DNA of 64,000 bases from a phage, in assembly GCA_024673055.1 (NCBI GenBank), contig GCA_024673055.1_4537.1. One strand, 5' to 3'. The stretch's first letter is position 1. Every line of letters starts with the position of its first letter. Both the position numbers and the translations under genes were made by a program. The notes beneath the pieces were generated by a model. It saw nothing but the letters and a program-made list of their open reading frames with translations. It was not told the DNA's origin and did not search any database. Shown here one piece after another: positions 1,271 through 36,010 of the stretch.

Positions 1271-1627
1271 ATGAGTGGTATTGAAAACAACATTTGTTAC
1301 CAACCTCTTACCTGGATTGGTGAGGGTCATTATGCGCAACGTGTTATCGTCTGTGCTGCGAATAAGTATATTTTGAATAATGGTGAAGAGTTAATTATTC
1401 CTTGTGTTCGACATGCAAATCCTGTACTATATGCACAGTTAAGCGTGTTGAAAGAAGCAGGTGTAATCAACAAAACTTTGTGCACACCAGATAATCAAGG
1501 CTTTATCGATCAGTATTACAATTGGTGGAGTCGTGCGGATGCTTACATCATCGCGGAAAATGCTGACCAGATCGACCATGAGCGTAATGGTCACGACCAT
1601 GAATTATTTAGCGAGGGATTATACTAA
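1271..1627 (+). CDS. hypothetical protein
   Basis: 118-aa ORF, GAGGAGGA SD, stop overlaps next start. Confidence 0.55.
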   Translation: MSGIENNICYQPLTWIGEGHYAQRVIVCAANKYILNNGEELIIPCVRHANPVLYAQLSVLKEAGVINKTLCTPDNQGFIDQYYNWWSRADAYIIAENADQIDHERNGHDHELFSEGLY

Positions 1628-2178
1628 TGTTTATTACAAGCGATTTGCATTTTATGCATAAACGTATTCGAGAGTTTGCTCCTGAATATCGTCCGTGGGA
1701 AGATATGGACCACATGACAGAAGCCTTGATCGAAGCATGGAACAAATGTGCTACTACTCCTGGTGTTAAGATGTGGCATTTGGGCGACTTCTGTTTCGGA
1801 ACTGAAGAAGATACCCGTAAAATTGCTTCCCGTCTCCAAGGAGATATCACCTACTGTGTTGGGAACCATGACTACAGCAAACACCGAGAAGTGCTTGCAG
1901 AGTATGGAGAAGTGGTGTATTATGACGAAGTGAAATATCAGAAGCTGTTCTTCGTCTTAAGCCATTACCCTATGGCCTCCTGGAATAAACAAGGTCGTGG
2001 ATCAATCATGCTACACGGGCATTCCCACGGATCTTTCCCTGATGAAGCTTATGGTAAAATGTTAGATGTGGGTTGGGATGCACACGGAAAAATCTTGCAT
2101 TTTGATGAGATAATTTCTATGATGAGTAAACGAGATATCGTGACTGTAGACCATCACAAAATAATCAAAGGAGAATAA
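1627..2178 (+). CDS. calcineurin-like metallophosphoesterase (candidate 2',3'/3'-phosphatase of RNA repair cassette)
   Basis: Motifs SDLHFMH (DxH), LGDFCFG, VGNHDY (GNHD), LHGHSHG (GHxH) typical of metallophosphoesterases; immediately upstream of RNA ligase. Confidence 0.7.
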   Translation: MFITSDLHFMHKRIREFAPEYRPWEDMDHMTEALIEAWNKCATTPGVKMWHLGDFCFGTEEDTRKIASRLQGDITYCVGNHDYSKHREVLAEYGEVVYYDEVKYQKLFFVLSHYPMASWNKQGRGSIMLHGHSHGSFPDEAYGKMLDVGWDAHGKILHFDEIISMMSKRDIVTVDHHKIIKGE

Positions 2179-2179
2179 T

Positions 2180-3112
2180 GTGGCTAAATTTAATTGCGAC
2201 GATTTGGTTGAAAAAGGTTTAGTTCATAAGAAAACATATAAAGAAGGAGAGTATTCTGGTCTATCTGTTCTTAAGTATAAGAACAAAGTTTTCTGGGATA
2301 ACTTATGGAGCATTGATTCTCGTCTTCTAGAATGTCGCGGAATCGTTGTTGATGCTGATGACAATGTTGTTATTTGGCCTTTCACTAAGATTTTTAATCG
2401 TTTTGAGAATGGCACAGATCTACCAGCGGATGAACTTGTAGATGTGGTTCGTAAAGTAAATGGTTTTATGGCCTCTGTAGGTGTATATAAAGGTCAACTT
2501 ATTGTATCGACAACAGGAAGCCTTGAATCAGATTTTGCAAGTATTGCAAAGAATCATATTGTTTCAGAGTGTGATGACATAGAACATTTCATCAAATGGA
2601 CAGAGAGTGCAAAAGCAACTTTCCTTTTTGAAATCTGTGATCCTTCTGATCCGCATATTGTCGAAGAAGAACCAGGTGCATACTTAATTGGTGCCAGAAT
2701 TCAAAATCCTGATGGGACAAGTTTTATGTTACCTGAAGGTGCTCTTGATGGAATTGCTTCTGTCACCAAATTTAAGCGTCCTGAAGTTCATCCAATGGTT
2801 AAGTTTTCAGATGTTGTTGAAATGTCTAAACATTGTAAACACGAAGGGTTTGTAGTTCGTGAAACAAACTATCCGTTCAACTTACTTTTAAAAATTAAAT
2901 CACCACACTATCTTACTAAGAAGTTTCTTATGCGCGGTGGAGATAAAAAGTGGGATCTGATTTGGGATAATCCAAAAAATGCCAAACAAATGGTTGACGA
3001 AGAATATTACGCTTTGTTAGAATGGATTCGAAATAATTTTACGAAGATTCAATGGGCTGCTTTAAATCAGCAAGAGCGACGTGAAAAAATCGAAAACTTT
3101 TTTGGAGGATAA
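2180..3112 (+). CDS. rnlA: RNA ligase 1 (T4 gp63/Rnl1 family)
   Basis: GTG start after AAGGAG; LECRGIVVD and KVNGFMASV (nucleotidyltransferase motif I lysine) and STTGSLESDFASIAKNHI align with recalled T4 Rnl1 LECRGIMFE / KEDGSLVST / KSKGSIKSEQALMANGIL. Confidence 0.7.
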   Translation: MAKFNCDDLVEKGLVHKKTYKEGEYSGLSVLKYKNKVFWDNLWSIDSRLLECRGIVVDADDNVVIWPFTKIFNRFENGTDLPADELVDVVRKVNGFMASVGVYKGQLIVSTTGSLESDFASIAKNHIVSECDDIEHFIKWTESAKATFLFEICDPSDPHIVEEEPGAYLIGARIQNPDGTSFMLPEGALDGIASVTKFKRPEVHPMVKFSDVVEMSKHCKHEGFVVRETNYPFNLLLKIKSPHYLTKKFLMRGGDKKWDLIWDNPKNAKQMVDEEYYALLEWIRNNFTKIQWAALNQQERREKIENFFGG

Positions 3113-3517
3113 ATGAAACAACTTATCATTTTACGTGGTGTTTCAGGTGCTGGTAAATCTACAGTAGCAGAAATTATTTCTGAAGGTTATTGGCCTATCT
3201 GTGAGGCAGATCAATATCATTACACAGAGAGTGGTGTTTACGATTGGAAGCCAGAAAATGTAGGTAAAGCACACGCATGGTGTCAGGGTATTGTTCGTGA
3301 TGCTATGGCATCTAATCTTAACAAGATTATTGTTTCTAATACTTCAACCACAGAGAAAGAACTTAAACCTTATCTAGCTCTTGCTGAAGAGTTTGGTTAT
3401 CAAGTTATCTCTTTAGTTGTTGAAAATAGGCACGGTAATGATTCAATTCACGAGGTTCCACAATATATCCGTGATCAGCAAGAGAAACGTCTTCGTGGTT
3501 CACTTAAACTTCAATAA
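3113..3517 (+). CDS. P-loop polynucleotide-kinase-like protein
   Basis: Walker A GVSGAGKST at N-terminus; 134 aa; resembles kinase domain of T4 Pnk; adjacent to Rnl1. Confidence 0.55.
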   Translation: MKQLIILRGVSGAGKSTVAEIISEGYWPICEADQYHYTESGVYDWKPENVGKAHAWCQGIVRDAMASNLNKIIVSNTSTTEKELKPYLALAEEFGYQVISLVVENRHGNDSIHEVPQYIRDQQEKRLRGSLKLQ

Positions 3518-4054: not shown

Positions 4055-4272
4055 GTACTGCATTTTATGTTCGTAGCGGAGACGAGGATTTTTTAGCTAC
4101 TTTTGATGACGGTGATCTTGAAGATATGTATGAAGATATGCTTGACTATGCCAAAGGGCAAGGTTTCACAAGCATTGATTACATGTTGGCAACATCTACA
4201 ACGTTACTCGACGCAGATTTGGATGAAGTGTGTAACAGATTGAAAATTTCAGTTTTTAAATGGGAGGACTAA
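4051..4272 (+). CDS. hypothetical acidic protein
   Basis: 73-aa ORF overlapping stop/start with neighbours. Confidence 0.4.
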   Translation: MSTAFYVRSGDEDFLATFDDGDLEDMYEDMLDYAKGQGFTSIDYMLATSTTLLDADLDEVCNRLKISVFKWED

Positions 4273-5387
4273 TGCAACAAACAAATCAAACGCTGTATGG
4301 TAAAGATTCAAAAGGAAAACTTAAACAGTGGACAGTGTATACAGATGGTGCAGTTGTTACTGTAGCTCATGGAAGAGTAGGTGGAAAAATCACAGAAAAA
4401 TCTTATACAGCAGAAGCAAAAAACATTGGTCGCTCCAATGAAACAACACCGGAAGAACAAGCTGAACTTGAAGCTTTTGCCAAATGGACAAAACAGTTAA
4501 AGAATGGTTATTATAAAACAAAAGAAGAAGCTGAAAACCATGTTCCTTCCACACCAATGAAATGCCAGGATTATAAAGATTATCCTGAAAGGGTTGTGTT
4601 CCCTGGTTATGCACAATACAAACTGAACGGGTTACGTTCTATGATTAACATGAAAGGAGAGTGTTTATCAAAAGCTGGGGAAGTGTATAACCTGCCACCT
4701 CATTGGAAAGGTATTCCAAACTTTATTAGTGAAGTTGTTGGTCATCCTCTTGATGGTGAAGTGTTTGCTGGGTTAGGTGTCCTTAGTCTGCAACAAATTA
4801 ACAGCGCCTGGAAGAAGCATAATGCAAATACACCTTTGCTGAATTATTACGTATACGATATTCCAGTTCCAGATCTACCGTTTGAAAAACGTGTTGATGT
4901 TCTTGCTGCTCTTAAGGCAGTAGTTGAAGATTATGGTCTTAATGAGCTTATTTGTGTAGTTCATACAGAGTATATTGAAAACCAAGAACAGTTTGATGCT
5001 TTCTATGAAAAAGCTTTACTTGAGAAAGCTGAAGGTGTAGTATATCGTAATGCTCACGGAGTTTACGAATTTGATAAACGTTCTTATGACGTTATTAAAC
5101 GTAAGCCTCGCCATACCCTTGAAGTTAAAGTAACAAATTCAAAAAGTGATAAAAATGGCGATGGAGTGTTGACAGGTGAGATGGAAAATGGTAAAGTAGT
5201 CGAATTCTTAATGCGTAAAGATGCTCATGAGACTATCAATTATCGTAAAGCAGAGAATGCTTCTACCTTGATTAATCAGTTTGTTGAAATAGAGTATGAA
5301 GAATTTTCAGATGAAGGTATTCCAACAAAACCTGTTGGTGTTCGTATTCGAGAAATGATCCCAGGCACTTGGGAACCAGCAGAATAA
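4272..5387 (+). CDS. ATP-dependent ligase-family nucleotidyltransferase (probable DNA ligase)
   Basis: Start ATG 4272 after GGGAGGA; motif I variant KLNGLR (KxDG-type), LDGEV, EGVVYR, DVIKRK spaced as in covalent nucleotidyltransferases. Confidence 0.5.
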   Translation: MQQTNQTLYGKDSKGKLKQWTVYTDGAVVTVAHGRVGGKITEKSYTAEAKNIGRSNETTPEEQAELEAFAKWTKQLKNGYYKTKEEAENHVPSTPMKCQDYKDYPERVVFPGYAQYKLNGLRSMINMKGECLSKAGEVYNLPPHWKGIPNFISEVVGHPLDGEVFAGLGVLSLQQINSAWKKHNANTPLLNYYVYDIPVPDLPFEKRVDVLAALKAVVEDYGLNELICVVHTEYIENQEQFDAFYEKALLEKAEGVVYRNAHGVYEFDKRSYDVIKRKPRHTLEVKVTNSKSDKNGDGVLTGEMENGKVVEFLMRKDAHETINYRKAENASTLINQFVEIEYEEFSDEGIPTKPVGVRIREMIPGTWEPAE

Positions 5388-35374: not shown

Positions 35375-35820
35375 GATTGAGTTCCTTTTTGTTTTTCAAT
35401 AGCTGCACGAATTTCTGCTAAAGGCTCTGCTACCAGATCTTCAACTTCTTGGATTTGTTCATTCATTACGTCACGAACCATTTGAATCCGCTCTTCAAGG
35501 GAAACAGCAAGTTCATCTGCATAAGCCATATTAAGAACGTGGTAGAAATTTTCTTGTGCACTTAAAGCACCAGATAACAAATAATCCTGATCTTCCTCTG
35601 GTAAAAGCATGTGTTGCTCATATTCAGCAAAAGTGTTTTTGTTAATCTCAAGTAAAGCACCCATCATAACATCATACTGATAATCTTTATGACCAGGGTT
35701 GTTTAAAATAACATCTTCAAAGATATTAAGAAGAATCTTAGTAACAAAAGCATTGTTTTCGGCACCTTCCATCTGACGGATTACCGTGATTACTTCTTTT
35801 TCTTTAGCGTTTTGGCTCAT
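35371..35820 (-). CDS. hypothetical protein
   Basis: 149-aa track ORF. Confidence 0.5.
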   Translation of the reverse strand: MSQNAKEKEVITVIRQMEGAENNAFVTKILLNIFEDVILNNPGHKDYQYDVMMGALLEINKNTFAEYEQHMLLPEEDQDYLLSGALSAQENFYHVLNMAYADELAVSLEERIQMVRDVMNEQIQEVEDLVAEPLAEIRAAIEKQKGTQS

Positions 35821-36010
35821 AGTGTTTCTCCTCTGATTCTATTTGGATATAACCTGTGGTTTTGCACGGGTTACACTCGTAAATTTGACCTACGTCCGCC
35901 ATAACATATCCTGCACCACCACAATAGGGGCAAGGCATAGGAGGACAAGGTATGGACGTAGTGATTGTTACGACATTATCAATTTCCAACATTTTCGCCA
36001 TTACTACCAT
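35804..36010 (-). CDS. small zinc-ribbon protein
   Basis: CPPMPCPYCGG...CNPCKTTG. Confidence 0.45.
   Translation of the reverse strand: MVVMAKMLEIDNVVTITTSIPCPPMPCPYCGGAGYVMADVGQIYECNPCKTTGYIQIESEEKHYEPKR

Follow-up and report, generated by a model that had tools for sequence, protein, structure and literature searches.

An ATP-dependent DNA ligase gene of a Phapecoctavirus and the recurrence of asparagine in its motif I

The window analysed here is a whole stretch of 64,000 nucleotides of phage DNA (GenBank assembly GCA_024673055.1, contig GCA_024673055.1_4537.1). It belongs to an E. coli phage of the Phapecoctavirus group (phAPEC8-like, genomes of ~150 kb) and shares 99.3% identity with Escherichia phage Mt1B1_P17 and other genomes of this group. 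On its plus strand, an open reading frame (ORF) runs from an ATG at 4272 to a TAA at 5385-5387 and translates to a protein of 371 aa. A Shine-Dalgarno sequence, GGGAGGA (4262-4268), stands directly 5' of this ATG, which shares 1 base with the TAA stop of the ORF before it. We rejected an alternative in-frame start (ATG 4260), which has no Shine-Dalgarno sequence; RefSeq and the homologues begin at the equivalent of 4272. The gene (4272..5387) is the orthologue of the phAPEC8 ligase and of Mt1B1_P17 gp264, which carries the RefSeq label "ATP-dependent DNA ligase", and it is an ordinary phage ATP-dependent DNA ligase, already known and annotated. When the whole 151-kb Mt1B1_P17 reference genome was read, no second ligase-sized DNA ligase was found annotated. 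The 65-aa product gp203 (window 35804-36010, minus strand) is labelled "DNA ligase" in that reference, but we rejected it as a ligase candidate; it is a small zinc-finger protein with two CxxCxGxG-like motifs.

Upstream on the same strand lie a calcineurin-type metallophosphoesterase (1627-2178), an Rnl1-family RNA ligase (2180-3112; PF09511, E 3.8e-15) that is annotated only as hypothetical, and a P-loop kinase (3113-3517). Together these form the RNA-repair cassette that a first, sequence-only reading of the window had placed a few genes before the ligase, and the cassette is real, being separated from the ligase by ~750 bp and four small ORFs. On the 3' side, the ligase is followed by genes for a pyrophosphohydrolase, an RdgC-like protein, a DNA polymerase exonuclease subunit, and the NrdAB ribonucleotide reductase subunits. 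The ligase neighbourhood is one of replication and recombination.

The protein comprises an N-terminal DNA-binding domain (NTD), a nucleotidyltransferase (adenylation) domain, and an OB-fold domain. [quoted passage not shown] Alignment to AsfvLIG places its loop and helix start at K50-N51-I-G-R-S-N56-E-T-T-P-E-E-Q63 (4419..4460), the counterpart of the AsfvLIG beta7-alpha3 loop and Q98; K50, N51, N56, and Q63 vary little or not at all among 67 homologues. The nucleotidyltransferase domain (aa 95-280; 4554..5111) was delimited by its match to PF01068 (aa 95-278) and by Foldseek comparison with ligase structures. It contains motif I, KLNGLR (aa 117-122; 4620..4637), with K117 as the predicted AMP-accepting lysine and N119 in place of the canonical Asp; motif III, LDGEV (aa 160-164; 4749..4763); the stretch L171-S-L173-Q-Q175 (4782..4796), in which L173 holds the nick-site position of AsfvLIG Leu211 and human LIG1 Phe635; motif IIIa, YYVYD (aa 192-196; 4845..4859), assigned by motif and conservation; motif IV, EGVVYR (aa 254-259; 5031..5048); and motif V, DVIKRK (aa 273-278; 5088..5105), of which KRK is residues 276-278. 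The OB-fold domain (aa 281-365; 5112..5366) carries motif VI, TKPVGVRIRE (aa 352-361; 5325..5354), with T352 and K353 at the positions of L402 and Q403 in AsfvLIG and of R871 and F872 in human LIG1. The succession of KLNGLR, LDGEV, EGVVYR, and KRK in a 371-aa protein is as the sequence-only reading had described it. Among the 67 homologues, the catalytic residues K117, G120, R122, D161, E163, E254, G255, K276, and K278 are invariant, as are R277 and the nick-site neighbours S172, L173, and Q174, and at least 90% of them have N119.

Profile comparisons against DNA-ligase, RNA-ligase, and capping-enzyme families place the protein among the DNA ligases. PF01068 is matched over its full profile length (E 1.5e-9; 38.2 bits against a curated cut-off of 26.2), and PHROG 114, 'ATP-dependent DNA ligase', is matched with E 2.8e-74, so that a chance succession of motifs is out of the question. 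The NCBIfam ligase models match only weakly, in keeping with a divergent phage enzyme. As to cofactor, all matching models and structures of this kind are those of ATP-dependent ligases, with none resembling the domains of NAD ligases. PF09414 (RNA_ligase), with E 0.0067, reaches 17 of the 27 bits that its cut-off requires, and the Rnl1-type model PF09511 does not match the 371-aa protein. The Pfam, NCBIfam, and PDB sequence matches and the top 50 Foldseek matches include no family or structure of capping enzymes. For the C-terminal domain, PF14743 (OB_2) is subthreshold in the query itself (E 0.049) but matches 51 of the 67 family members (best E 1.2e-5); we assign it to the DNA-ligase OB_2 type on the strength of these family members and the structural model.

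The same placement follows from comparison with solved structures. A profile built from the 67 family sequences matches AsfvLIG best (E 5e-23; aa 37-364 against AsfvLIG 74-411), followed by Lig E and the Chlorella virus, P. marinus, and T4 ligases. The motif I lysine, K117, aligns with the catalytic lysine of Psychromonas Lig E (4d05, KLDGIR) and with K151 of AsfvLIG (KRNGVR), and hence lies in a true motif I context. The AlphaFold (AF2) model (pLDDT 94, pTM 0.82) resembles ligases throughout, nucleotidyltransferase and OB-fold domains included; its top Foldseek matches are closed AsfvLIG:DNA complexes (E 3e-25, TMq 0.77, ~410 columns), and every significant PDB match is a DNA ligase. The nucleotidyltransferase domain, the OB domain with motif VI, and the PF01068 and PHROG 114 matches bear out the sequence-only view of the protein as a covalent nucleotidyltransferase of the ligase family.

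AsfvLIG (NP419L; PDB 6IMJ, 6IMK, 6IML, 6IMN), a eukaryotic-virus enzyme with a role in base-excision repair, is the closest solved structure and matches across the whole phage protein, with an identity of only ~22%. Its NTD is longer than that of the phage ligase (120 versus ~92 aa), its motif VI reads LQARAVGFRE rather than TKPVGVRIRE, and the OB-domain pair at the nick site is L402/Q403 as opposed to T352/K353. Two nick-site residues are shared, N119 corresponding to Asn153 and L173 to Leu211, so that the phage enzyme has part of the four-residue AsfvLIG set. The minimal ligases of Chlorella virus PBCV-1 and of bacteria (Lig E, e.g. 4D05, 6GDR) have the same nucleotidyltransferase and OB_2 core with six motifs, matching with profile E values of 1e-15 to 1e-17 and Foldseek E values of ~1e-17 to 1e-18, but they are without an N-terminal DNA-binding domain and have KxDG in motif I. 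The catalytic core also aligns with the T4 ligase group (T4 6DT1; Rhizobium phage P10VF 9FZX; P. marinus) at a Foldseek E of ~1e-18. T4 ligase is a phage replicative ATP-dependent ligase whose three domains encircle the nick; in this group, however, the DNA-binding domain consists of alpha-helices and bears no relation to the NTD described here, and motif I is again KxDG.

The other phage ligases of PHROG 114 have the same NTD signature, nucleotidyltransferase, and OB domains and range over rV5/Vequintavirinae, Felix O1/Ounavirinae, Pakpunavirus, Nankokuvirus, and Vibrio, Alteromonas, and Caulobacter phages. In ten sampled distant phage clades (25-35% identity), Cronobacter phages included, motif I keeps KxDG, and eight of the ten have Phe at the K353 position, mostly as QFP, whereas the Phapecoctavirus-type subfamily combines KLNG with TKP. 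The commercial 'R2D ligase' comes from a Cronobacter phage (PMC12121391). Our search of viral contigs at this locus returned almost only close relatives (at least 43% identity), and the distant phage ligases were taken individually. In the genome of phage CR9, which may be the source of the R2D enzyme, the 60-105 kb stretch contains no homologue of the ligase described here. Nor did we find biochemistry in the literature for any member of the phage subfamily.

The NTD of AsfvLIG was reported by Chen et al. to have a 'completely novel' fold, with its beta7-alpha3 loop (K85, N86, K89-N91) and Q98 contacting DNA (PMC6344480), and a later review described this NTD as unique and AsfvLIG as a single node (Williamson and Leiros 2020; PMC7470946). 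The phage domain has the same mixed alpha/beta organization, with the beta7-alpha3 loop and the long helix. A domain with its loop-helix signature, KNxGxxNxTxxxQA, begins the ligase in 815 phage records that align over their full length, and is found also in the ligases of pithovirus-like metagenomic viruses and of Solivirus. The relationship is visible to profiles alone: as a single sequence, the NTD finds nothing significant among PDB sequences (AsfvLIG E 1.5), while an NTD-only profile matches AsfvLIG with E 3.9e-6. The same profile matches 2ra8 with E 0.03 over the stretch 'W..V.G..V.V.YGK.G', and in structure the domain has the appearance of a WGR fold. This link to WGR thus consists of structure and one marginal profile match, and we speak of a WGR-like fold rather than of homology because the Pfam WGR model, PF05406, matches none of the 67 family members at E <=1. 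Compared with the WGR domains of bacterial WGR-NT-OB_2 ligases and of PARPs, the phage NTD has an extra conserved KNxGxxN loop.

Motif I of the protein has Asn at the usual Asp position. That N119 is a genuine motif I residue, as the sequence-only reading had it, is clear from the alignments above, but the implication that KxNG is an oddity does not hold, since most of the subfamily has it, it turns up repeatedly among the phage ligases at large, and AsfvLIG, an active enzyme, has it as well. Among 120 close homologues, KxNG is found in 113 and KxDG in 7. A full-library profile search recovered a wider family of 3,271 representatives (50% identity clusters) at E <=1e-30; in the best 150 of these, motif I could be read in 145, with Asn in 56 and Asp in 89. 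N119 is therefore a tolerated, recurrent variant of the canonical Asp. AsfvLIG itself has K151-R-N153-G as motif I and is an active ligase, and Chen et al. named Asn153, Leu211, Leu402, and Gln403 as its four 'unique' nick-site residues, whose human LIG1 counterparts are Asp570, Phe635, Arg871, and Phe872, with a salt bridge between Asp570 and Arg871; the N153D substitution was examined only in combination with other mutations (PMC6344480).

The OB-domain residue at the R871 position appears to be relevant here. In the wider set, Arg occupies the R871-equivalent position in 28 of the 89 Asp-type ligases and in none of the 56 Asn-type ligases (Fisher p 1.8e-7, without correction for phylogeny). 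Among the close homologues, N119 occurs together with T352 in 111 of 114 cases, and D119 together with Q, L, or C in six of seven. This pattern suggests that Asn is tolerated where the OB-domain Arg clamp is absent. We infer that Asp would be needed mainly with an Arg partner, so that lineages without the Arg could drift to Asn; in the Phapecoctavirus-type subfamily, T352 leaves motif I without the Arg charge partner, and Asn would therefore suffice.

The Asn of ASFV and that of the phage subfamily probably arose independently and are convergent. When a fragment of AsfvLIG, reconstructed from the alignment as printed, was used as the query, its highest scores were with phage ligases of the Asp type, namely those of Cronobacter phage 009 (1.4e-27) and Alteromonas phage AD45-P1 (7e-26), ahead of the subfamily described here, although at ~22% identity this is weak evidence. 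Common ancestry of the two Asn residues was rejected as the simplest reading on the same ground.

Beside the phage DNA ligase, the sequence-only reading had entertained a second RNA/DNA-end sealing enzyme, and a role in sealing RNA or RNA/DNA-hybrid ends together with the upstream cassette could be read from the proximity of the two on one strand, from the weak PF09414 match, and from Caulobacter phage CcrSC, in which a homologue lies two genes from a T4 RnlA-like RNA ligase. Some DNA ligases, moreover, accept RNA-containing substrates, the Chlorella virus ligase, sold as SplintR, among them (PMC12121391). We nonetheless consider such a role very unlikely. The PF09414 match, 10 bits short of the score that Pfam requires, expresses likeness at the level of the superfamily. 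At its C-terminus the protein has the OB fold of DNA ligases, with motif VI, and not the C-domain of an Rnl1 or Rnl2 enzyme. The NTD has as its homologue an AsfvLIG domain for which binding to duplex DNA was shown (PMC6344480), and the significant structural matches are to DNA ligases alone. RNA sealing has its own enzyme in this phage, because the cassette includes an Rnl1-family ligase, and a phage without the gene at 4272..5387 would have no DNA ligase. Of the two options it is the phage DNA ligase that is upheld, by the best sequence and structure matches, all of them ATP-dependent DNA ligases, and by the lack of another ligase-sized one in the reference genome.

The remaining alternatives accept a DNA ligase homologue and concern what the nick-site residues do. 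That loss of the motif I Asp has left a catalytically impaired or nonenzymatic protein is extremely improbable. This Asp is highly conserved in most DNA ligases, and motif I residues share in water-mediated metal coordination (PMC7470946), but all other catalytic residues are invariant in the 67 homologues, the level of Asn conservation in the subfamily indicates selection, AsfvLIG is active with the same Asn (PMC6344480), and the phage has no DNA ligase besides this protein. A better case can be made for a low-fidelity, mismatch-tolerant ligase like AsfvLIG, in which Asn119, Leu173, and Thr352/Lys353 would loosen base-pair discrimination: two of the four AsfvLIG nick-site residues are identical, the other two positions are likewise without the Arg/Phe pair of the high-fidelity human LIG1, and the architecture and closed-form model match AsfvLIG. 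We regard this too as unlikely. Chen et al. tie the four residues to catalytic efficiency and complex assembly and not to mismatch discrimination as such (PMC6344480), and Leu at the 173 position is common in the wider phage family, sampled Asp-type clades included. The sole ligase of a 150-kb phage must also seal normal nicks accurately enough, and since the nearest phage relatives of ASFV in our set are Asp-type, pointing to an independent Asn, the AsfvLIG phenotype need not carry over.

Judging from sequence and model together, we conclude that the gene very probably encodes the phage's own ATP-dependent DNA ligase, with WGR-like N-terminal, adenylation, and OB domains, and that it performs standard three-step nick sealing. 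For its catalysis, we predict that ligase-AMP forms by attack of K117 on ATP while motif VI, in the OB domain, orients the pyrophosphate; that the NTD, nucleotidyltransferase, and OB domains then close around a nicked duplex as they do in AsfvLIG, and AMP is transferred to the 5' phosphate; and that attack by the 3' OH seals the nick. N119 presumably retains a hydrogen-bonding role near the nick and the metal waters. The ligase would be co-expressed with the replication, recombination, and nucleotide-metabolism genes, and its biological role would lie in closing the nicks that Okazaki fragments, recombination, and repair leave in the 150-kb phage genome.

The identification of the gene in itself matters little, as it is an annotated DNA ligase and Asn is normal at this place of motif I in its family. 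The comparison is modestly useful for AsfvLIG, whose supposed uniqueness in the NTD and in Asn153 and Leu211 can be corrected, since hundreds of phage genomes, and giant viruses of the pithovirus-like kind, have these features too. More generally, the NTD, Asn153, and Leu211 of AsfvLIG may be commonplace in a very large superfamily of phage ligases with a divergent WGR-fold domain, in which motif I Asp has changed to Asn repeatedly and only in the absence of the OB-domain Arg, a proposal that we put forward tentatively and with some doubt. If it is true, these enzymes would have a 'clamp-less' nick site that may relax fidelity or broaden the range of substrates, which could yield new ligase reagents and would recast ideas on AsfvLIG targeting. 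The mutual exclusion of motif I Asn and OB-domain Arg gives ligase engineering a simple hypothesis on structure and function that can be put to the test.

The sharing of the NTD with more than 800 phage genomes, and its WGR-like fold, are mildly new. As a side result they are incremental because WGR domains had already been annotated in bacterial ligases and the ASFV ligase was suggested in 2009 to have come from a phage (PMC2806865). The NTD resembles the WGR module of the kind carried by PARPs.

The N-terminal DNA-binding domain of the ligase (aa 1-92), a homolog of the corresponding domain of the African swine fever virus ligase, has matches in BFVD to A0A481Z1D1, A0A481ZBX0, and A0A3G5AK00, three DNA ligases that come from Solivirus and from metagenomic viruses resembling pithoviruses. 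The domain aligns with these giant-virus ligases at a TMq of 0.7-0.8 and 25-38% identity. The phage/ASFV-type domain is therefore also found in other giant viruses.

Six of the best 150 family representatives, from 3,271 in the full-library profile search, carry an intein-like insert of ∼350 aa exactly within motif I (P0123, P0144, P0160, P0176, P0181, and P0195), which accounts for their size of 706-785 aa. At the junctions, K-L-D/N-G is followed by an insert that begins with C and ends with VHN, after which the ligase resumes with C-R. The catalytic motif I of all six is split until splicing.

Upstream of the ligase lies a split RNA-repair cassette of three genes on the plus strand (1627-3517), comprising a calcineurin-type phosphoesterase (1627-2178), an Rnl1-family RNA ligase (2180-3112; PF09511, E = 3.8e-15) that RefSeq labels only as “hypothetical,” and a 134-aa P-loop kinase (3113-3517). 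The cassette looks like a T4 Pnkp/Rnl1-style tRNA repair system in which the kinase and phosphatase are separate proteins. A phage tRNA gene cluster is located upstream of the cassette in the reference genome, Escherichia phage Mt1B1_P17.

RNA and DNA ligases are also close together in the unrelated jumbo phage CcrSC of Caulobacter, in which a T4 RnlA-like RNA ligase (gp219) is followed two genes later by the ligase homolog gp221 (region 162243-164154), annotated as “hypothetical protein.” Among the Vequintavirinae-like records, several from phages of Klebsiella, Proteus, and Raoultella (e.g., NC_028659.1, MK024806.1) have a Sir2-like NAD-dependent deacetylase gene immediately beside the ligase homolog, whereas in Mt1B1_P17 a Sir2 gene (gp213), although present, is ∼27 kb away.

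A 68-aa ORF on the minus strand (35804-36010) is the ortholog of Mt1B1_P17 gp203, annotated as “DNA ligase” in RefSeq. The ORF is much too small for a ligase, and the label is therefore probably a misannotation. The ORF contains two DnaJ-like CxxCxGxG motifs (CPYCGGAGY and CNPCKTTGY).

The MG0656xx records (“Campylobacter phage A141, C7, D1...”) are labeled as Campylobacter jejuni phages. Their ligase genes are 96-99.8% identical to those of E. coli rV5-like phages, and some of the records match the Phapecoctavirus region as well. By sequence, they appear either to carry wrong host labels or to represent isolates that are E. coli phages.
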